A program made the position numbers and the translations under genes. Below, in pieces: positions 2,917 to 63,085 of a DNA stretch of 64,000 bases. This stretch comes from Octopus vulgaris. Lineage: Eukaryota. The stretch covers positions 158,534,001 through 158,598,000 of the forward strand of contig OX597817.1 in assembly GCA_951406725.2 (NCBI GenBank), read 5' to 3'. Numbering within the stretch: the first letter of the stretch is position 1; every line of letters begins with the position of its first letter. The notes below the pieces were generated by a model, which was given only the letters and a program-made list of their open reading frames with translations, did no database searches and was not told the origin of the DNA.

Positions 2917-2971
<55 letters not shown>

Positions 2972-3433
2972 CATATACACACACACAGATCTACCCCTCA
3001 ACCATGCAGAGGTATATACTGAAATTCACACATACATATGAAGGTACGCGCGCGCACACACACACACACACACATATACACACATACACACAGGCGTTGT
3101 CTACCTTATGATGATAATGATAATGATGATGATGGGTTGGTTGTGTTGGAGGCGGTAGTGGTCACTTTGATTAATCTTAAGTGTCGTGAGAGTTTCGGAC
3201 AAAACGTCTTGCGGTCTTTAGCTCCAGGACATTGCGTTATGAGTTCAAATCCCGTGGATGTCTCTTTCGTCTTTCATACTTCCGTGGGGGTCGATTAATA
3301 AAATACCAACAAGAACTGGTATCACTGTAACCAACTAACCTCTCTCGCCTATATTAAAAACAATGTTTAACGAAATACTTACGGTACTTACACACACACA
3401 CACATATATATATAAATATATATATATATATAT

Positions 3434-4014
3434 GCCTGAGATGTATGAGACACATTCTGAATGTTGGCTGGACCTTTGAAACTCCAGACATACAGGTCTT
3501 GAGGAAAGTTGATATCTTGGGTATTGAGGCGATGGAGCACAAGCACCGGTTACGTTGAACTGGAGACGTTATTAGAATAAAGGATAGCAGGATTCCTAAG
3601 CAGACGCTATATGGGAAACTTCTTAGTGGAAAGAAACCCCGGCAGACACCAAGGCTGCGATTTAAGGACTGTGTCAAGTCCTCATTAAAGGCTTGTGATA
3701 TGCAGGAGACCGACTGGGAGAGCAATGCCTTTCATTGCCACAGATGGAGGAAGCAGGTTAAGGAGGGGATCGACACTTTTGAAAGAGCATGTATTCTTCA
3801 TGAAGAATTTAAGCATGCTGCTCGAAAGCGCACTGCTAGCGTAGTGAATGGGGAAAGATTGGTTTGCAATGTTCGTAGTCGTGTATGTTTGTCAAGAGTA
3901 GGGCTCATTAGCCACCAACAGAGCCGCAAATGCATAATATAAGTTAGAACTAGAGCGCACAATGTTCCTGAAGGTCAGCAATGGACTTCCTCGGTCACGA
4001 GTGGACGGCCATCC
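3434..4014 (+). mobile_element. RTE (BovB-like) LINE 3' fragment
   Basis: Translation CLRHILNVGW...HRLR*TGDVIRIKDSRIPKQTLYG...LRFKDCVKSSLK..WE..RWR..VCLSRVGLISH is typical of the RTE C-terminus; flanked by (TA)n. Confidence 0.85.
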
Positions 4015-4159
4015 TATATATATATATATATATAAATATATTCACACACACATAGATAGCTAGGTAGATAACGATAGATATTCCGTTTTATGGTGTTACT
4101 CTGGGTTTCTACTGCTCTATAACTTAGTGTGCTTTTTTATCGGACTTATGATTTATTGA

Positions 4160-4211
<52 letters not shown>

Positions 4212-4218
4212 ACAAACA

Positions 4219-4286
<68 letters not shown>

Positions 4287-4319
4287 ATTTTCCTTGAGCC
4301 GTAGGACTCATAAGGCTAC

Positions 4320-4632
4320 CGGGCGTTGTGAGTGTTTATTGAGCGAAAACACCTAAAGCTCCACAAAGCTCCGGCAGGGGATGGTGGTGATCCCTGCTGT
4401 ACTCTTTCACCACAACTTTCTCTCAATCTTACTTCCTGTTTCTGTTGTACCTGTATTTCAAAAGGCCGGCCTTGTCACTCTCTGTGTCACGCTGAATATC
4501 CCCGAGAACTACGTTAAGAGTACACGTGTCTGTGGAGTGCTCAGTCACTTACACGTTAATTTCACGAGCAGGCTGTTCCGTTGATTCGGATCAACCGGAA
4601 CCCTCATCGTCGTAACCGACCGAGTGCTTCCT
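4320..4632 (+). mobile_element. SINE family A, 5'-truncated
   Basis: Body and tail match family A. Confidence 0.85.
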
Positions 4633-13951: not shown

Positions 13952-14850
13952 TTGTTTTAAACCTTGGGATTACATAGAGAGTATTTTGCGTAGGATATGA
14001 GCAGTTCCCATGAGCACTATCTTTTGAATTTCTGCCAATTTGGGGTTTCCTGGTATCTGAGTTAGGTAGCAATCAGTCCCTTTCGCTATCATTCCCAGGG
14101 CACCTATGACAACAGGTATTGTTTTAGTCTTCAGGTTCCACATTTTGCTGATTTCTATTTCAAGATCTTTATATTTGCTCAGTTTTTGGTAGGTCTTGAC
14201 AGATACGTTTATATCGATTGGGACAATCATATCAATGAGGAGGCATGTTCTTTGTCTGAAGTCTTTCAATATGATGTCTGGCCTATTTGCATCTATCTTC
14301 CTGTCAGTTTGAATGGTGAAGTTCCAGAGGAGTGAGATGTGGTCATTTTCAAGCACTGGCGGTGGATTGTGTTCCCACCAGTTTTTTTCATGAGGCAAAT
14401 CCAGGTTTTTGCAAATTACCCAGTGAATATATTGTGCAGCTCTATCATGCCTATTGAGGTACTCTGTAGGCGCTAGAAGACTGCATTTGGAGACAACATG
14501 ATCAATGGTTTCATTTTGTTGTCGGCATACACGACATGTTGGGCTACTGCCGTTCTTTAATATGTTGGCCTGGTAGTTTCTTGTTGGTAGGCATTGATCT
14601 TGAGCTGCTATGATAAACCCTTCTGTTTCAGATTTTAAGCCAGAGGCTATTAGCCATTGATGGGTCAGGGCTTTGTCGATATCTGCGTTATTCGCTCTCT
14701 TTGGGTATTTGCCATAGAGAGGTTTTCTTGCCATTTATTATTCAGAATATCTAAGGCCGCAGTTTTGGCACGGGTTTTCATGCGCCTAGCTTTTTCTGTG
14801 CTTGTTTCTTGTATGTCTATCTCTAATTCCGAAATTGGTTGTATTGGGAA

Positions 14851-15423: not shown

Positions 15424-16056
15424 TATGTTTGACTTTTGCTTTATATTTGTACAAGTTGGCTCCAAGTCTCACCCAGAGACCTCAAGAGACAACAGGTTGG
15501 AAGTTCATGTTGTTATGCCTAGTGTGCCATATATTTGGGTTTTTTTGGTGTTGTACTAGTGAATGTCTAAAAAAAAAACCAAGAAAACCGAAAATTATGT
15601 TTGTTTTAAACCTTGAGATTACATAGAGAGTATTTTGCGTAGGATATGAGCAGTTCCCATGAGCACTATCTTTTGAATTTCTGCCATTTTTGGATTTCCT
15701 GGTATCTGAGTTAGGTAGCAATCAGCCCCTTTTGCTATCATTCCCAGGGTACCTATGACAGCAGGTATTGTTTTAGTCTTCAGGTTCCACATTTTGCTGA
15801 TTTCTATTTCAAGATCTTTATATTTGCTCAGTTTTTGGTAGGTCTTGACAGATACGTTTATATCGATTGGGACAATCATATCAATGAGGAGGCATGTTCT
15901 TTGTCTGAAGTCTTTCAATATGATGTCTGGCCTATTTGCATCTATCTTTCTGTCAGTTTGAATGGTGAAGTTCCAGAGGAGTGAGATGTGGTCATTTTCA
16001 AGCACTGGCGGTGGTTTGTGTTCCCACCAGTTTTTTTTCATGGGGCAAATCCTGGT
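15424..16056 (-). mobile_element. Second, more 5'-truncated R4/Dong copy of the same family
   Basis: ORF 15619-16041 is nearly identical to the C-terminus of 13970-14734. The 3' UTR runs directly into (AAT)n on minus. Confidence 0.9.
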
Positions 16057-24764: not shown

Positions 24765-25099
24765 ATTTAATTAATCTATACTATGACTTTTAAAATCTGT
24801 ATTTGTATTATTATCTTATCTATTGATTTATATAATACTTTTGTATGCTTTTGATGTTCTCATTTGTAAAATGAATAAATAATCCAACATTATAATATCC
24901 GCAAGTTGATGCACAAACCAAATTTGTTTATTAAATTAGAGATAAAACCACTATTAGGCAAACCAAACAGTGAAAAACATAAACCAAAACATAGAAATAA
25001 AAATAATTAATATAATATACAAAATATATAAAATATAAAATTCAAAATTTAAATTATTTAAATTTAAAGTTAAAAATTTAAAATTATTAATTTATATTT

Positions 25100-25182
<83 letters not shown>

Positions 25183-25267
25183 CTTAGAATAACTTAGAAA
25201 GGTTTTTGGCCAGTATTGGCCCAGGCCATGTCTAACTTAATAGCACCACCTGGCGAAGTCTTTCAGT

Positions 25268-28200
25268 TCAGGATTTGGGCACCAAGGCCCATTCGAGCAG
25301 AGAGTTATTGTTTGCGGAGACATATCCGGGTGTGGATGGTTTGTCCGGTACTGTTTGAAGGAATTTGTCCAAAGACTTCTTGAATTTTGTGTGGTCAGTT
25401 TCTTTTTTGACGTGTCCTGGTGTAATGTTGAAGAGAGCGGGTCCAATTGAGGTGAAATAGTTGTGCCGTATTGTCGTTATGTGATGCGATTTAGATTTTT
25501 GTTGTGGACGGATGGCACGTGGTCCAAGCCTTGGATGCATTTTGAAGGTGATGCCAACATCATTCGGACAGTGCTGATGGAATATTTTCCACATCATACA
25601 GATAATGTAGCGTTCACGGCGTCGTTGGAGTGAATACAATTTCAGCTTCTCTAGTCTACCCCAGTAGTCAAGGTCTGACATGCCATCTATCTTTTTTGTG
25701 ATTGACCTTTGGGGAGCTTCAATTCTCATAATATTTTGTTTTGTGTAGGGAGACCACAGTGGACAGCAGTATTCAAGGTGGGGTCGGGCAAAAGTGGAGA
25801 AGAGAAGGATAATAGCGTGGGAATCTCTCGACTGGAAGGTTCTGAGAATCCAGGAACACATTCTGCGGGCCATGTCAACTTTGCTGCTTATATGTGTAGC
25901 CCAGCTTATGTTGTTGTCCACTGTTACTCCCAGGTCTCTGATGTTGTTGGATGCCATGAGAATTTCTCCAGAAGGAAGAGAGTATGGGAGTTTCAGAGCG
26001 TCCTCCCTTCCAAAGTGGATCAGTTCGAATTTGTCTTCATTTAGCAACATGTTATTCTTTTCCGCCCATTGGACAACAGCTAGTAGGTCTGACTGAAGGT
26101 TTATTCGGTCATCCACGTCATTGATGACCTTCTGGAGCTTGGAATCATCAGCGAAGGTTCTGATGTTGCTGTGTTTGATGGTGTCAGTAATATCATTTAT
26201 GTAGATGATGAAGAGAAGTGGGCCCAACACAGTGCCTTGTGGGACACCACTGCTGACTTTGGCTGGGCTGGATTTGACTCCTTCGACTACAACATGTTGG
26301 GTTCTGTTAGAGAGGAAGCACTTGATCCATTGCAGCAGCTTTCCAGTGACACCAATATTGGACAGCTTTCTCAGAAGGATCTTATGATCAACCCTGTCAA
26401 AGGCCTTGCTGAAATCAAGGTAGATGACATCAGTGTTGGAACCCTCTCCCAAGGCTCTCAAAATGTCATCAAAATGATGCAGTAGCTGCGTCAGGCAATC
26501 TCTCCCATTACGGAATCCATGCTGGTTGGGGTTCAGCATATTATGACTCTCAAGGAAGTGAGTCATACGCGATCTCAGCACCCTCTCAAATACCTTGATG
26601 ATATGAGAGGTGAGTGAGATTGGACGGTAATTCACGGCAAGCGATTTGTTTCCTTTTTTGAAAACTGGGACAACAGACTGGGATAGAAGGTCTTCTGGTA
26701 TATATCCAGCATCCAATGAGTTCCGCCACAGATTGGCTAGAGGGGGTGCAAGTTGGTTTTGACACATCTTCAAGACACAAGCAGGGAACCTATCGGGACC
26801 TACTGCTGAATTATGCTTCATTTCCTTTATTGCTGCTAAGACATCAGGAGCGCCAAATGTTATGTCCGATAAAGTGTATTGGGGAGTAACATCACTGATA
26901 CAGCCCAGATCAGTCATATCAGGATTGCTGAAAACAGAGCAATATTGTTTCTGCAATATTTCTCCCATGGTTTTGGCATTGTCTTGAAGAATACCATTTT
27001 CATCAATCAGAGGGCCAACAGTAGAACCAGTGACTCTGTGTTTTTTTGCAAATGAAAAGAACACTTTGGGATTGAGTTTGATCTTCTCAATGGCCCAGGC
27101 CTCTTCAGCTCTTCGCTGACTATTGATGATAGACATCATGTTGTTTTGGAGTTTATGTTTTTTAATCTCTAGCGACGAGATGGCAGTCAGGTTGGTGTGT
27201 TGCTGTTGACAGTATTTCAGCATGTTGATCTTTTTGTTGATTCTTTTAATTTTCCTTATGAGAGATTTTCTATTTCTAGGGATTCGACACTTAGATTTGT
27301 TTGCAGATCTTAATGGGGTGTGTCTTGCACATATGTTCGTGATGGTGTCTACAAGTGACTGCCAGGACTTTTTGATGTTAGTGGGTGTGTATGTGTGCGT
27401 GAAGGACCAATCGACTTGTGCAAGATCATTATTGATCGCTTCCCAGTTTGCATTGTGGAAATCCATAGTGTCAAATGGATGAACAGGAGGGATGACATTT
27501 GTTTTGCATTTTGGCCAGTGAAATCTCAGATCACAGAGAACCATGTCATGGTCGGAGAGTAGGGTTTTCTCCACTGCAATATTGTGGATAGTATCAGTGT
27601 GATTGCTGAAAATTAAGTCTAAGACGTTTTTGTGACATCTCGTTGGTTCGAGTACCAGTTGGGACAAGAAGAAGTCATCCATGAAATCAAGAAGCGATTC
27701 CACTGCCTCCCTGTCAGGGGTTGAGAGAGAAGAACCTGGCGGCAGACTGTTTGTAGACCAGTCAACCCCGGGAAGGTTGAAATCTCCCATCATTAAAATG
27801 TTGTCAGGTTGACACTGCTGAATGAAACACTTTATGCTGTTGAGGCATTCCTTGAAGCATGGTAGGGGCGTTTGGGGTGGTCTGTAGAGCCCAACTACTG
27901 TTAAGTTGTTGGTTTGACTGAATACAGCGACTGCTTCGCAGTATCCATTCGAAAATATGTTCATGGCTTCTGTTGAGAATGAATCATGGACATAAATGGC
28001 AGTCCCACCCTTTCTTCTGCCAACACGATCAGCACGAATGGTTTTGAAATTTTTTTGAAATTTTTAACTTTCACCTCGGCTTCCAAGTGGAGGTCACTAA
28101 GATGGGTTTCAGTGAGGACGAAGAAAGGGATGTGGTTTGGATGGGCCTCGACCCAGTCCTCCAGGAATCTTATCTTCCATTTTTGTGTATTGGTGGAAGG

Positions 28201-28296
28201 GCTGATGCCTTGGGCATTAAGCAGAAATGTTGAGGCGAGAGTGGATGGTTTTAATTGTTTTGGTGATTTGTTTATTTGATTGCTTTTTAATGGCAT
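25268..28296 (-). CDS. LINE ORF2: APE endonuclease + reverse transcriptase (frameshifted by an 11-bp duplication at 28044-28065)
   Basis: APE motifs LTETHL, GLYRPP, MGDFN, LDLIF, SDH. RT motifs YRPISL, QHGFR, YLDFSKAFD, GVPQGTVLGP, FADD. ORFs 27961-28296 and 25268-27964 join in frame when one 11-mer is removed. Confidence 0.93.
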
Positions 28297-29536
28297 GTGT
28301 AGTGGGGTAATAGTGGTGGATGGCGGTGGGTGATAGCTCGGATGTTTTTTTCCAGTTCTTTTGCTAGATTCATTATAGCTAAAAAAGAGGAAGAAGAGGT
28401 GGTTTCCTGTCTAGGGAACCGCAGGTGACTGTGGCCGCGGCTATTTTTATGTGAGTGGTTATCTTTAAATGTCCGACGAGTCCCCGGAGATGGGTAAAGG
28501 GGCAATCCCTGTGCAAACACAATCTGTCTCGCTGGGAATAGCGGCAGATTTGGGGATTCCTTGTTTGAGATATTGGTGGTTGTGGTGATGTTGTATTATG
28601 GTGGTTGCTGTTGTAGTTTGTGGGGATAGAGCGTTTTGTTCCAGGTAAATGGGTGAATTTGCAGTCTCTATCAGTGCACAGTCTATGGCGAAGAGAATAT
28701 CGGCAAATGATGGGGTTTCGAGTGGGTGTGTAGGTGCGTGTATGTGTGTGAGCTGTGAAAGGTGTAGATGATAGTTTGAAGTTTTGGCGACCTTTGTGAC
28801 CTGTAGGAGGTAAATTCCTTGAGATAGCATTAGTAGTAGTAGCTGTAGTAGTAGTAGTAGTAGTAGGTAGAAGAGATGTTGACGGTGGTAATGATTGAGG
28901 AGGTCGATTCCAAGACAAAGATGTTTGTCGATATATAGTGGGAGTAGTACTAGTAGTAGTAAGCAGAGGAGATGGTGTTGACAATGATGATGATTGAGCT
29001 GCTGGGGCAGTGAAAGGAAGGGGTGGTGCTTCCTGCTGTGTGACCCTGATGACTGGGGGGTCAATCGTTTCATTTAGCAAATCGGCCATTGTAGATGAAT
29101 CAAGGAGTGGTTCATCCTGTTGTTGTTGTTGAGGTTGTTGTTGTTGCCTCTGAGGTTGTTGCTGCTGAAGTTGTTGTTGTTGCTGTAACTGTTGTTGTTG
29201 TTGTTGTTGCCGCTGAGTTTGTTGTTGTTGAGGTTGTTGTTGTTGTTGTTGAGGTTGTTGTTGTTGTTGTTGCGCCGGTGATGCGTTCGAAGAGAAAACA
29301 CATCTCAGTTTATCGAAGTGTTTATTTATTAATTTAAAAGCAACTTCGATTTGTTTTAATTTATTTTGGATCTGCTGTTCAGATCGAGTTTGCAAATGGT
29401 GAACTGTTCGTTTAGCAATTTCGTTCAGACACGAAGCACCTATGCTCTCTGTTTCGGTAAGGCCATGCCATGTGTTGATAAGAACGTCGACTTCATTATC
29501 AGACCAGTTTTTGTTGGATTTTTGGTGGCTAGCCAT
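28287..29536 (-). CDS. LINE ORF1: Myb/SANT(trihelix)-like domain, polyQ, Thr/Pro linker, two CCCH zinc fingers (1-bp frameshift near 28486)
   Basis: WSDNEVDVLINTW...RSEQQIQNKLKQI at the N-terminus and two C-x8-C-x4-C-x3-H motifs. The C-terminus continues in ORF 28287-28520 (PGTRR..., parallel to PGTKR after the first finger). Confidence 0.8.
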
Positions 29537-30226
29537 TCTGGTTGATATGTTTTATTAAATTTTATTTTGTTCGTTCGTTTTGTTGATTACTTTTAATTAT
29601 TATTATTATTTTTTTTTTTTTTTTTTTAAGGAGAAGTATGTAGAATTGATTGTACAGAATGTTTGTTGTAATACTGAGAAGTTTGTATTTGAATTATGAG
29701 CTTGTAGTTATTTTATCTTTCTTTTTTTTTTTTTTTCCCCTCTTTTTCTAATTTTTAATGTGTGGGTGATCCTTTAGTTATCAGAAGGTGTTTGAAAATA
29801 TTTGGTCGTTTGAAAATTATGAAAATAGTTTGTGGTTAAGGAAAAGTCTACTCACGAGTTGGGAAAAAGCGTGGTTTCAAATATACAGGAATATATGTGA
29901 TGGTCAATTACGACGAATGTAGCTGTGAAGCTTGCTGCTGACCGGCGCAGAGAGGAGTAAAAACACGTCTTATCGTCTCAGCTTACAATATATATTATAT
30001 ATATATATATATACATATATATATAATATTTTAATTTTAATTTCAATTTTTCATTTATTTATTTATTTATTTATTTATTTACAGAAAGACAGACAAAGAG
30101 AGAGGGGGGGGGAGATACAAATAAACACGATTGAACTTGATATATAAAATAGACATACATATACACATGTAGATATATGTATATAGTGATATATAATAGA
30201 GAAAAACAAAAAGAAAACTGAAAGTA

Positions 30227-35599: not shown

Positions 35600-37628
35600 T
35601 CACTCATTTTCAATTATATAATCCTATCTGGCTGATAAGTTGTTGATCCTTCGGGCATTAAAATATTCGGGTTTCGGTACAAAGAAAAATATTCAATTTC
35701 TGTGTTTACCTCTTCTCGATTTGTGAACTGTTTTCCATTTAAATAATGTTACAATGATAAGAAAAGATGATAATCCGATTAGTTAAGATCGGGTGAATAA
35801 GGAGAATGTGGCAAAACTTCCATATTAAGCGTGAGAATTTTGTTCAGCGTAATTCGAACAATATGCGGTCTTGCATTGTCGTGTGTGAGCAACACACCTT
35901 TACGATTAATCAATGTTGGTCGGTTTTTCTGCAACTTTTGGTACAATGATTCTAGTTGGTGACAGTAACTTACCAGCATTAATTGTCTCGCAGGAGTTCG
36001 CAGGTGTTCAACACTTTACTATTTCAAGATTTTGCCATAAAAGCATTACACAGAGAGAGAAGCTTGCGGGCTGGACAAGGACATTACTGAGATGAGTGAT
36101 GAAAAAGATGGTATTAATGGGACGAGCTGGCAGAATCGTTAGCACGCCGAGCGAAATGCGTAGCCGTATTTCGTCTGCCGTTACGTTCTGAGTTCAAATT
36201 CCACCGAGGTCGACTTTGCCGTTCATCCTTTCGGGATCGATTAAATAAGTACCAGTTACGCACTGGGGTCGATGTAAGCGACTTAATCCGTTTGTCTGTC
36301 ATTGTTTGTCCCCTCTGTGTTTAGCCCCTTGTGGGCAGTAAAGAAATAGGTATTAATGGGAGAAGACAAAAGACGCCCGCCGATCTTTCCTTCTCTAAAA
36401 CATTGTTCTTTTTTCTTTTATTTTGAAAAACAAAAAACACAAATGAGGTAATGAACCTCTTACAGTAACATTAGATTTCATAATAATAACAAAAACATTA
36501 GATTGAGGCGCTAAGCCCCTTATCGATCATCCCCGATTAAATCTCTTGCTGCCTTCAGGCAATCCCGCAGCGGTATGTCGGGGACCCAGAAGAGATAATT
36601 GTACTCTTTCTTAGAAAGGAATCGATTACCTCATAAAATTTACTTTCTTCCATGACCTCCGCAGCTACCTGCGGAGGTCAGTATGGACTATCCATGCTGG
36701 TCGGGACCACCAGTTCCCGACCTTCAAAACTATCCACAAAGTTCTCTACGGCCTCTCCCTTGAGATAGAAGACCACATATTCTTCATTATTTTCACTGGG
36801 AGGGGCCACAGCCTCCTCCGCCTGTGGCACAATTTCCACCGACGAAGTTCAACACTTCATGATAGACGACACCCCTCATGTCTCACCAAAGAAAAAGCGT
36901 AACATTTTCTGGGTGTAGTTCTGTTTTGGGTGTTGCTTGCCCCTTTTCATTGGGTGATAACCATTGTGGTTTCCTTTAGATATTATTGTAAAGCACCTAG
37001 TTTCACCACTGGTTATTATTCTATCCCCCAAAAAGGGTCACTAGCAAGTCAACTCTTTAATGAAGCGCAAATGGCAACCCTCTGATCGAGTTGTGTAGCA
37101 GTCAGATTATGTGGCACCCATTAGCCAAGTTTAGACACTTTTCCCAGTTTGTGCAGTTGCTTTACAATAGTTCTGTGACATGTATTGAACACATCTGCCA
37201 ACTCTCGTGCAGTTTGCTTGGCATTTTCTTCCACCATATTGCGTAAAACCTCGAGATCGTGGGAATTTGATCGAGGGGAATCACTGAGGCAAAAGTTTCC
37301 TGATCGAAATTGTTTAAATAATCGATGGCATGTTCGAACAGTTGGAGCTTCATTTTTATAGGCAGAACCAATATCTCTTGCAGCGTTTTTTGCTGAGGAA
37401 CCCTTTTTGTATTCATACAGCATATAATGTCTTATATGTGTCTGATCAGCACTCATTCTAGAGGGCTCAGATTGCAGAAATATTAAACATTTTAGCATCA
37501 AATTAATCTGAAAGAAACAAGAAAAGCATTAGGACAAAAAATGAAAAGTTTATATTGCATACAGCATTGACAAAGTGCATTCAAAGTTAATATGTCTAAA
37601 ATGCGACAGGATTTTGTATCCAACCTAA
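35600..37628 (-). mobile_element. Decayed mariner split by insertions
   Basis: HTH region at 37121-37501 (HIRHYMLYEYKKGSSA...), catalytic HDNARPH and PHSPYSPDL at 35779-35979, TIR-like TTAGGTTGGATACAAAA at the right end. Left boundary is approximate. Confidence 0.8.
36122..36350 (+). mobile_element. SINE family B inside a mariner
   Basis: TSD-like GGTATTAATGGGA. Confidence 0.85.
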
Positions 37629-60017: not shown

Positions 60018-60418
60018 GCGCTACAGTAGACTATTTCAATGTGAAACATATAGGCGGGGCTTTACAGTCTTTTATATTTATTGCAGATTATATTATTTTA
60101 ACCTCTGTTTTGTTTGTTTATTATGTTTTTAATCTGCTTAGATGAGATTACTAACAGAAATGCAAGTTGAATTATTTTTGTTGTTGTTTGATTGGTTGGC
60201 CAATCAAAGTATGTCTACGGCTTTGTTTTGTATGTTAAGCTTAGAGAAACGAATATCTACTATTGCATGTTCAGTTGGTCGTCCTAGCGAGATCATTGAG
60301 AACCTGTGGTCGACACATCAACACGGCAATCATCTGCTTAGCAAGTTTTTGCAAACATCAACATAAGCAGACTAGCAAGTTGACTGAAGTAAAACGAAAC
60401 GAACTTTCATTTCACCAG

Positions 60419-62655
60419 CATGCCGCCAACAACAAGTCCTCCGGCGCCAGCTGTTCAACAGAACCCCATTAAGCCGCCACCACCGGGAAGTCTTCCGATG
60501 GGTCCACCGCCTGGAGTTCCTTACAACATGCCGATGACACCGCCGACTACCCCGGGCCAACCGCCTCATCAAGTGCCTTATCAAGTTCCGTATGGTCCCC
60601 CTCGTCCCCAAGGCCCTCCTGGTCAACCGCCTATGAATTATCCTGCTCAAGGACCACCTCCACGATACCCTGGCCCTCCAGGTCCTCCAATGCAAAGACC
60701 TCCAGGCCCTCCAGGCCCTCCAATGCAAAGACCTCCAGGCCCTCCAATGCAAGGACCTCCAGGCCCTCCAATGCAAGGACCTCCAGGCCCTCCAATGCAA
60801 GGACCTCCAGGCCCTCCAATGCAAGGACCTCCAATGCAAAGACCTCCAGGCCCTCCAGGCCCTCCAATGCAAAGACCTCCAGGACCACCTGGACCGCCAG
60901 GACAACCTGGTCAACCGCCGATGCAATATCCTCCGAGATATCCAGGTCCGCCGGGACCGCCAGGCCAACCAGGCCAGCCTCCGATGCAAAGGCCACCCTA
61001 TCAACATCCTCCTTATCCACCACCTGGACAACAACCGATGCAACAGAGGCCTCCGGGACCACCTGGTCAAGCTCCAATGTATGCTCCTAGACCAGGTGGA
61101 CCCCCACCACAAGGACAACCAGGATACCCTCCTCAAGATCCACGAATGCAAATGTATCCCTACGGAGCCCCACCGCCTCAACGTCCTCAAGGGCCACCAC
61201 CACCACCTTCGGGTCCCCCAGTAATTACTATAACAGAAGCACCTAAAGTTGAAGAGAAGAAAGATGATGCGAAAAAGACCGAAGAGAAAAAAGCTGAGTC
61301 CAAAAAAACCGAAGAGAAAAAAGACGATGCCAAAAAGACCGAAGAAAAAAAAGACGATGCCAAAAAGACCGAAGAAAAAAAAGACGATGCCAAAAGGACC
61401 GAAGAAAAAAAAGCTGATGCGAAAAAGCCTGGTGAGAAAAAAACCGAAAGTGGAAAAGTTAGCGACAAAAAAGCTGACGAGAAAAGTGTTGGCAAAACTG
61501 TTGAGAAGAAAAGTGATGATAGGAAACCAACCGCAAAAAAATCCGAGCCTGGAAAATCTGAACCAGGTAAACCAGTCAGTGTTCACAAAGCTCCATATAA
61601 ACCGAAATCTCCTATGAACCCTGTCGCGAAGCCAGAAAAGTCACAATCAGGAAAATACGGTTATAATCCAGTTGGTGGTCCACCGGCTTCACCAAAGAAA
61701 AGCAAGGTGTCAGCAAGCCAAACACAACCCAAAAAAGAAGAGCCCAAAACGACTGGCAAATATGGCTATAAACCTGTTGGAGGTCCACCTCCCTCACCAA
61801 AAAGGTCAAGACCACAACCAGTTGTTCAGCCAGCGAAAAAGCAAGAAACTTCTACTGCTGGAAAATATGGTTACAATCCAGTCGGTGGAACTCCGGCATC
61901 ACCTAAAATCGTAAAATCACCTTTAACTGAGAGAAAGCATAACTATGTCCCTCCAACTAGTCCAATCTCCTTTATACCGACAGCGAAACCTCCTGTTACG
62001 AGTGCTTCTGAAAAGCCGCGACAATTTGGTTACAACCCCATCGGCGGGCCTCCACTTTCTCCAAAAGCCACGCACAGTTCTTACACACCGGCTAAAGCTG
62101 ATATTGTTAAAGCAACTGATCCTAGAAAGTCAAGATCCCAAGAACCAACTAGACCGCCCCCGAAAAAAGTGGTTCCACCACCAACGAGGCCTCCACCGAT
62201 CACAGACCCAAAGAGAGCCCCACCTCCAAGACCAAGCGGGCCAGCGCCAAAACAAAGTGCGCCAGCATCAAAACAAGGTGTACCAGCTTCAAAACCAACT
62301 GCGCCAGCTTCAAGACAAAGTATGCCGCCACCAAAGATTGAAGTTATTGAGAAAAAACCTGAACCAAAGAAAAGTGAGCTGGAAGTTTCGAAAAAACCTG
62401 AACCAAAGAAAAGTGAACTGGAAGTTTCGAAAAAACCTGAACCAAAGAAAAGTGAACTGGAAGTTTCGAAAAAACCGGAACCGGCAGCAACAACCAAACC
62501 AACAGACAAACCAACCAAAGAAAAAAAAGAAGAGAAGCCGGTGCCAAAACCTGCCGAAAAACCGGCGGAAAGGAGAATGTCAAAATCAGATGAAGAGAAG
62601 AAAACTGAAGATGTAAAGGCTGATAAAAAAGAGGAAACTACTGGCAGGAAAGACA
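60419..62655 (+). CDS. Large coding exon of a host gene: Pro/Gly/Gln-rich then Lys/Glu-rich intrinsically disordered repeat protein (family not recognised)
   Basis: 766-codon ORF in non-TE sequence. Acceptor-like ttcatttcaccAG at 60417-60418 lies just before ATG 60420; donor-like ca|GTAAG at 62656. The ORF tail after 62655 runs into an antisense SINE 3' end. Repeats: GPPMQ(R/G)PP, KKTEEKKDDA, YGYNPVGGPPxSPK, KKPEPKKSELEVS. Confidence 0.8.
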
Positions 62656-62669
62656 GTAAGACAATCTAT

Positions 62670-63085
62670 ATTCTTTTATTCTTTTATTCTTTTATTCTTT
62701 TACTTGTTTCAATCATTTGACAGCGACCATGCTGGAGCACTGCCTTGAAGGTTTTTAGTCAAAGAAATCGACTCCGGGACTTATTCTTTGTAAGCCCAGT
62801 ACTTATTCTATCGGTTTCTTTTGCCGAACTGCTAAGTAACGGGGGCGTAAACACACCAGCATCGGTTGTCAAGCGATGTTTGGGGGGACAAACACAGACA
62901 CAGACACGCATAGATATATACATATATACGACGGGCTTCTTTCAGTTTCCGTCTACTAAATCCACTCACAAAGCTTTGGTCGGCCCGAGGCTATAGTGGA
63001 AGACACTTGCCCAAGGTGCCACGCGGTGGGACTGAACCCGGAACCATGTGGTTGGGAAGCAAGCTTCTTACCACACAGCCTGCGT
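62670..63085 (-). mobile_element. SINE family C just downstream of the putative splice donor
   Basis: Reverse copy; supplies the hydrophobic end of the 766-aa ORF. Confidence 0.85.

Follow-up and report, generated by a model that had tools for sequence, protein, structure and literature searches.

We analysed a 64,000-nucleotide stretch of the Octopus vulgaris genome (assembly GCA_951406725.2, contig OX597817.1, positions 158,534,001 to 158,598,000), hereafter the window, whose coordinates are used throughout. On the minus strand, at 25181..29989, is a near full-length, twice broken copy of a long interspersed nuclear element (LINE), which we call family A. It has a pair of open reading frames (ORFs), and it encodes an apurinic/apyrimidinic-type endonuclease (APE) and a reverse transcriptase (RT). 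Twenty copies fetched from the genome are 97.3–99.1% identical to it and have the same 3' end. Copies are dispersed, with a fixed 3' end carrying a tandem tail, variable 5' truncation and no long terminal repeat (LTR). Hence, the element is an APE-type non-LTR retrotransposon. The C-terminus of ORF2 has what we take to be a CR1-like look. Membership of CR1-Zenon was rejected; the element has an ORF1 and a tandem non-A tail, whereas PMC13343379 characterises CR1-Zenon by a poly-A tail and the absence of ORF1.

In its family extent, ORF1 spans 28287..29536 (~408 amino acids in intact copies). Reading from the ATG at 29536, the N-terminus is WSDNEVDVLINTW...RSEQQIQNKLKQI...FK and includes a Myb/SANT-like three-helix head (residues 9–73; 29318..29512). 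A Gln-rich tract (29123..29272), a poorly conserved Thr/Pro/Ser-rich linker (28706..29122) and two C-x8-C-x4-C-x3-H (CCCH) finger motifs (28649..28705 and 28490..28546) follow. Behind the fingers, the slippery heptamer T TTT TTA (28380..28386), a candidate −1 frameshift site, encodes Ser-Phe-Leu in the family ORF1 frame. The C-terminal segment of ORF1 (28287..28379), a predicted helix, is overlapped by an open −1 frame. Both the ORF1 stop (28289–28287) and an ATG in the ORF2 frame (28296–28294) lie inside this overlap. ORF2 (25268..28410) occupies the −1 frame and contains APE and RT domains (Pfam Exo_endo_phos_2, E 5e-14; RVT_1, E 1e-30). A short 3' untranslated region (UTR), with a short tandem tail at its end, completes the element (25181..25267). 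All of these features are on the minus strand. Arrays of (TA)n abut the 3' (25093..25181) and 5' (29988..30029) junctions.

Two lesions mark the window copy. One base found in other copies is absent at 28482..28486 (~28485), just behind finger 2. Hence, the ORF1 frame ends early, at 28379. The initial annotation placed ORF1 at 28287..29536; position 28287 is indeed the family stop, whereas the window copy's own frame stops at 28379. ORF2 is interrupted by 11 extra bases (~28042–28052). Contigs of four out of four public runs show the alternative state at both lesions, including the base missing from ORF1.

ORF1 architecture across families

A search of the 2.8 Gb genome with the head gave 771 candidates; 150 were scored and 23 were identical over 88 residues. 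The 20 family A copies were the best matches, three being chosen for odd ORF lengths. A whole ORF1 is present in 17 of the 20, and 12 have a separate uninterrupted ORF2 of 1042–1044 codons. Family A is a young and abundant APE/RT LINE and the ORF1 architecture noticed in the initial annotation holds family-wide. Family B has the same layout, with an ORF1 53% identical to that of A, as does the decayed family C. Searching the genome with PF13837 (43 matches among 150 scored) led to family D, whose ORF1 carries four CCCH fingers behind a Myb head and whose ORF2 is ~61–65% identical to that of A; most of 20 fetched matches have APE/RT pieces downstream. Family E combines a Myb head with a K/E-rich linker and one finger. 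It was fetched as a Myb-less control, found to be Myb-headed, and family F became the control. The latter has three fingers and a PHD-like head, recognised from its Cys/His pattern and a match to locus L099. That the Myb-like head and CCCH fingers make up one ORF1 is virtually certain.

The ORF2 tree (nine rows, LG+G4) places E, with its Myb head, as sister to the PHD-headed F (support 100/100). A quick mixture-model tree likewise pairs E and F, and the approximately unbiased (AU) test rejects a single Myb clade (p 3e-7). Hence, there were at least two changes of head, or the head passed from one lineage to another. Despite differing tandem tails, a block of ~35 nt in the 3' UTR is common to families A, B and D (window 25210–25260; 3' ends of L056 and L088). 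One family D copy (L115; G000:C9:9511400-9518900) is split just behind the junction, at ~2950–4540, by a helicase-like stretch, presumably parvovirus/densovirus NS1-like.

Residues 1–88 of the head score 27.7 bits against PF13837 (cut-off 27, E 3.7e-6), so the Myb/SANT (trihelix)-like assignment of the initial annotation holds by a small excess; the whole window ORF1 scores just 22.6. Isolated heads reach 27.7 and 28.0, related D-type heads 31–43 bits and the family E head 21.1, below cut-off. At E<=0.01, the profile matches 19 of 19 heads from families A–D. The AlphaFold2 (AF2) model has three helices (predicted local distance difference test score, pLDDT, 84). Its structural matches are homeodomain, Myb/GARP, SANT and trihelix proteins, all of the helix-turn-helix (HTH) class and tied at Z 5.4–7.0 (best row, root mean square deviation 2.2 over 63). 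Foldseek gave no match to the model at E<=0.001, and a PDB sequence search nothing useful. Word-indexed homologue searches with the whole ORF1 and the head alignment also gave none at E<=0.001, which is weak evidence. Atlas neighbours of the head are Myb/SANT-like clusters, at ~0.9. Between A and B, synonymous sites in the head are saturated (proportion of synonymous differences, pS, 0.76) and the nonsynonymous proportion (pN) is 0.25. In helix 3, the basic residues R47, K50, K55 and K57 are invariant or nearly so across 19 heads. From the PF13837 matches, the three-helix model and pN against pS, the head is a selected Myb/SANT-like HTH with predicted DNA binding. Two short free-standing Myb/SANT ORFs, at L063 and L064, score ~20 bits against the profile of the LINE heads and could represent the donor family.

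Against a three-finger cassette profile, the two window fingers match the final finger at 45 bits; 200 shuffled sequences and one reversed sequence gave <=8.7. The profile used here was built without A or B rows. Hence, the two fingers of the initial annotation are borne out by this profile, while the Pfam CCCH models suggested for checking them are weak by themselves (E 0.054–0.9, below cut-off). The C-C-C-H ligands are conserved and the fingers are under purifying selection. Between A and B, the ratio of nonsynonymous to synonymous substitution rates (dN/dS) is 0.08 for finger 1 and 0.03 for finger 2. The fingers likely bind zinc and RNA.

The cassette profile (five rows, three of them non-Myb) matched 2,246 clusters at 50% identity among 1.84 billion representatives (E<=0.001), some matches being fragments. 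Pfam was run on 111 of the best 150 relatives. At E<=0.001, nine have PHD and five Tudor/MBT/PWWP domains, most are unannotated and none has a Myb head; only two reach a Pfam CCCH cut-off. Among the 153 proteins scanned with it, the head profile matched only family D's own ORF1. Because the cassette profile had three non-Myb rows and some matches are fragments, this does not confine the Myb head to the octopus genome. Phe-Leu is found behind the fingers in 119 of 148 cassette tails (35 expected). A structural model of the family D cassette is confident over residues 31–110. Foldseek ranks CPSF30 and further CCCH proteins at the top, with no row at E<=0.001 (best E 0.034), and a PDB sequence search gave no match. 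Atlas neighbours are zf-CCCH clusters at 0.83–0.87. These sequence comparisons identify the CCCH part as a widespread cassette with exchangeable heads, and the Myb head as an apparently local novelty.

The initial annotation also counted polyQ among the defining modules, and this part did not survive. In the window copy, 41 of 50 residues in the tract are Gln, and its length varies from copy to copy. The best 50-residue stretches of the Myb families hold 36 (A), 25 (B), 15 (D) and 10 (E) Gln; the PHD family F has 14. PolyQ is dispensable for the pattern and varies by family.

The ORF1/ORF2 junction

We compared junctions using one representative of each of 11 families, five from the genome and six from 12 metagenome loci. 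ORF2 sits in the −1 frame relative to ORF1, behind an in-frame U_UUU_UUA. The junction Phe-Leu codons are T TTT TTA in ten families and T TTT TTG in E. At other Phe-Leu pairs in the ORF2s of these families, heptamer-type codons occur once in 41. The chance of a heptamer, calculated from codon use, is 0.002–0.03 per family. Conservation of the heptamer spans ORF2s as little as 32–44% identical, and four-fold sites of A/B and D are just 36–44% alike. The site is included in 11 of the 12 metagenome loci and all 11 have the heptamer. In every family the −1 frame opens 1–13 codons upstream of the heptamer. It reaches the APE in 10 of 11, and in seven of those ten there is no Met before the APE motif. 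The overlapping tail segment of ORF1 is under purifying selection in its own frame (dN/dS 0.24, A versus B). Taken together, the junction sequences make it likely that ORF2 is produced by −1 ribosomal frameshifting at U_UUU_UUA.

Among genome copies, the six-T run is present in 19/20 for A, 11/17 for B, 18/38 for D (10 without the site), 20/20 for E and 13/14 for F; the B count includes copies chosen deliberately for odd ORF lengths. Shortened or altered T runs at L041, L042, L051–L054, L036 and L107 fuse ORF1 to ORF2 or stop ORF1 there. In contigs of the four public runs, the T runs of A and B are free of indels. Hence, the altered copies would be assembly errors or rare copying slips. Among relatives, E, Q, K, M or W precedes Phe-Leu in only 4 of 118. 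This rarity fits a third-position T, but also helix capping, and so was not counted. In family B, the slippery site lies within a hairpin (−16 kcal/mol, z −5.8; L056:2585-2635). A weaker version with one pair changed on both sides occurs in A (z −1.8; L028:2618-2668), and D has none.

Flanking (TA)n arrays

A flank was called TA-rich if TA or AT made up half or more of the steps over the adjoining 30 bases; the background in the window is 6.4%. By this measure, 3' flanks are TA-rich in 19/20 copies of A, 16/16 of B (17 examined), 12/24 of D (38 examined, tail parsing being unsuccessful for some) and 15/20 of E. For the PHD-headed family F, the counts are 1/13 (14 examined) and 3/26 (30 fetched, four duplicates removed). 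Hence, the four Myb families are TA-flanked in 62 of 80 copies compared with 4 of 39 for F, and the association of head and (TA)n raised in the initial annotation is present. The 5' flanks of A and B are TA-rich in 28 of 37 under a stricter cut. Three elements of the metagenome set, with heads other than Myb and with their 3' ends visible, belong to a different host and are not TA-flanked. Copies of A, B, D and E adjoin one another, mostly head-to-tail around common TA arrays (L031, L036, L041, L052, L055, L085, L122).

Elsewhere in the window, two LINE fragments on the minus strand (13970–14734 and 15619–16056) lie beside (TAA)n runs and have a restriction-like nuclease C-terminus; we assume that they are R4/Dong-like. 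A transposase fragment at 37121–37528, also on the minus strand, is presumably Mariner-like. On the plus strand, 60393–62720 is a 775-codon open frame with internal repeats, Pro/Gly/Gln-rich and then Lys/Glu-rich, which is probably a host exon.

Interpretation and known systems

Our preferred interpretation, which we hold to be rather more probable than not overall, is as follows. The window copy is a damaged member of a young APE/RT LINE family with a Myb-CCCH ORF1, in which ORF2 would be made by a −1 shift; in the resulting fusion, endonuclease, head and fingers would share one chain. Briefly, most ribosomes would make ORF1p, consisting of head, spacer, fingers and tail helix. The fingers would bind and package element RNA, the tail helix would oligomerise and polyQ would be a drifting spacer. 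A minority of ribosomes would slip at U_UUU_UUA to give head-fingers-APE-RT lacking the tail helix. In families of both head types, Myb and PHD, the endonuclease would nick at TA steps, and the Myb head could bias the complex to long (TA)n arrays. This last step is the weakest, and we put it at somewhat less than an even chance.

Several observations weigh against this interpretation. Regarding the head, the fold matches fail to split Myb from homeodomain, and helix 3 lacks, in our alignment, the Trp usual in Myb-type domains. The ORF2 tree has long branches and was built with LG+G4. At the junction, family E has G at heptamer position seven, and of the six metagenome families five are closely related (61–78%), so that the 11 families amount to about five deep lineages. 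In the metagenome element L092:567-4850, the heptamer is present and ORF1 and ORF2 form a single 1427-codon frame 0. The −1 frame of the overlap has no amino-acid constraint (dN/dS 1.5 over 28 codons, A versus B). No conserved RNA structure was found 3' of the heptamer by minimum free energy folding, a model outside which pseudoknots fall. Good folding was confined to B (z about −3 to −4, full range −1.4 to −4.0); for A and D, z lies between −0.7 and +1.3. An in-frame Met precedes the APE in families A, D and E. In family A this Met is 8 nt from the ORF1 stop, so that reinitiation could operate there. Hence, ORF2 could instead be made separately, by termination-reinitiation or by AUG-independent initiation as proposed for L1, with Phe-Leu kept for the protein, where it would begin a helix, and the T run incidental. 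The missing stimulator and the Met codons fit this alternative, as do the proximity of the ORF1 stop to the APE start in most families and the frame 0 constraint on the ORF1 tail. S-F-L-E is also similar to a helix capping box. For mammalian LINE ORF2, the available text of PMC5009743 describes AUG-independent initiation as the favoured route. However, protein constraint leaves synonymous codons free, and heptamers are found at 11/11 junctions versus 1/41 pairs elsewhere. Separate synthesis also leaves unexplained a −1 frame that is open for 42–88 codons and starts just before the site. We regard it as unlikely.

With frameshifting retained, the choice of (TA)n could still be made wholly by the APE endonuclease and annealing of the 3' tail. 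The Myb head would then serve protein or RNA contact, nuclear retention or autoregulation. Endonuclease-determined targeting is usual for APE LINEs. In addition, the association of Myb with (TA)n is one independent contrast, E (15/20) against F (4/39), whatever the p value, and the endonucleases of E and F differ too (42% identity). A TA start is seen at 17 of 26 F junctions, partly through the tail's own T, and just half of the parsed D copies are TA-flanked. Against this, the ORF2 of E is nearer to F than to A, B and D, yet E shares head and long (TA)n flanks with A, B and D; the near-invariant basic residues of helix 3 point the same way. We put selection by the endonuclease and tail close to an even chance. 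Alternatively, (TA)n flanks could arise during or after insertion, by tail synthesis, microsatellite growth or survival bias. The genome is microsatellite-rich, empty sites were not seen and target-site duplications are unreadable inside repeats. However, 5' flanks are TA-rich too, 5'-truncated copies included, and equally young F copies of the same genome are not TA-flanked. We regard such an origin of the flanks as very improbable.

Much broader is the proposal of a large unrecognised LINE class with an HIV-type −1 frameshift and a Gag-Pol-like ORF1-ORF2 fusion. Here, the reader at the head of ORF1 (PHD, Tudor/PWWP or Myb) would travel with the endonuclease and set the target; in the octopus genome, a captured Myb head, passed between RT lineages, would have retargeted elements to long (TA)n arrays. 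We consider this doubtful. The ORF1 type might also be catalogued already, in Repbase, Dfam or other papers, and then be a normal representative of a known subgroup. Clusters with the cassette are very numerous, and the PHD-only 'type V' CR1 subgroup of PMC4120745, for which that text leaves ORF1 mostly unidentified, could be the PHD form. Conversely, the terms myb, sant, ccch and frameshift do not occur in the main texts of PMC4120745 and PMC13343379, supplements aside. For 10 cassette clusters, 17 members are listed, and all are nameless. No Myb- or CCCH-bearing LINE ORF1 is described in the literature searched, a scope that leaves Repbase, Dfam and supplements outside. We regard earlier cataloguing as rather unlikely.

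Frameshifting has been suggested before for LINEs with overlapping ORFs. The text available for PMC5009743 mentions HeT-A, TART and L1, and no −1 site in such LINEs. The element of PMC9115989 is, from the portion available, an RTE and not the present LINE. The accessible parts of PMC6101501, PMC7175516 and PMC4640811 hold nothing on a Myb-CCCH ORF1. PMC10294476 treats mollusc LINE clades, in its accessible text without ORF1 detail, and its supplement could hold the present lineage. Our data add an ORF1 type, with a CCCH cassette and exchangeable heads, that is unlisted in the main text of either survey (PMC4120745, PMC13343379). In young, often intact families of one genome, two questions become testable: the mode of ORF2 translation in LINEs other than L1, and whether insertion can be steered by ORF1. 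The Myb-headed, TA-flanked family E and the PHD-headed family F, which is not so flanked, offer a ready pair for swaps.

In its main text, the ORF1 survey of Metcalfe and Casane (2014; PMC4120745) describes RRM, CCHC, PHD, esterase and transposase-22 types. Its CR1/L2-lineage LINEs, with ORF1 types I–V, resemble the present element in having two ORFs, APE and RT, and a short 3' tandem tail. They also have a modular, exchangeable N-terminal reader, PHD being found both there and in family F. Unlike them, the present ORF1 pairs CCCH fingers with a Myb head; neither is in that catalogue, in keeping with the distinct ORF1 class proposed in the initial annotation. Types I–IV were rejected for A, B, D and E, in whose ORF1s a Pfam scan detected no RRM, CCHC, transposase-22, PHD or esterase domain; the survey itself used comparison of hidden Markov models (HMM-HMM). 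Among PF13837 proteins (trihelix GT-1, host and Harbinger-type), the head has in common the profile match and three-helix fold, with GT-1 among its weak Foldseek matches. It differs in scoring marginally and in sitting in a LINE ORF1. The fingers have the CCCH spacing of tandem RNA-binding proteins such as CPSF30, Nab2 and MBNL, and CCCH proteins top the Foldseek rows for the cassette, albeit above E 0.001. In contrast with those proteins, the window ORF1 carries the last finger of the cassette in duplicate.

The available text of PMC5405496 suggests recoding at the ORF1/ORF2 junction of APE LINEs in Paramecium non-LTR groups 1–3. These belong to a different clade and would use a +1 shift, reinitiation or read-through. 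Closer in mechanism are the gag-pol fusions of HIV-1 and LTR elements. The HIV-1 heptamer is U_UUU_UUA; heptamer and phase are the same, with a structural protein in frame 0 and an enzyme in −1. In contrast, the present element is non-LTR, lacks a conserved downstream stem-loop in our search, and has a predicted frameshift. In R2, a Myb domain helps to find the target; R2 has a single ORF, a restriction-like nuclease and C2H2 fingers, whereas the present LINE has an APE, CCCH fingers and two frames. Nevertheless, the predicted fusion would have a layout like that of R2-type proteins (PDB 8gh6, 8ibw), with Myb, RT and nuclease on one chain.
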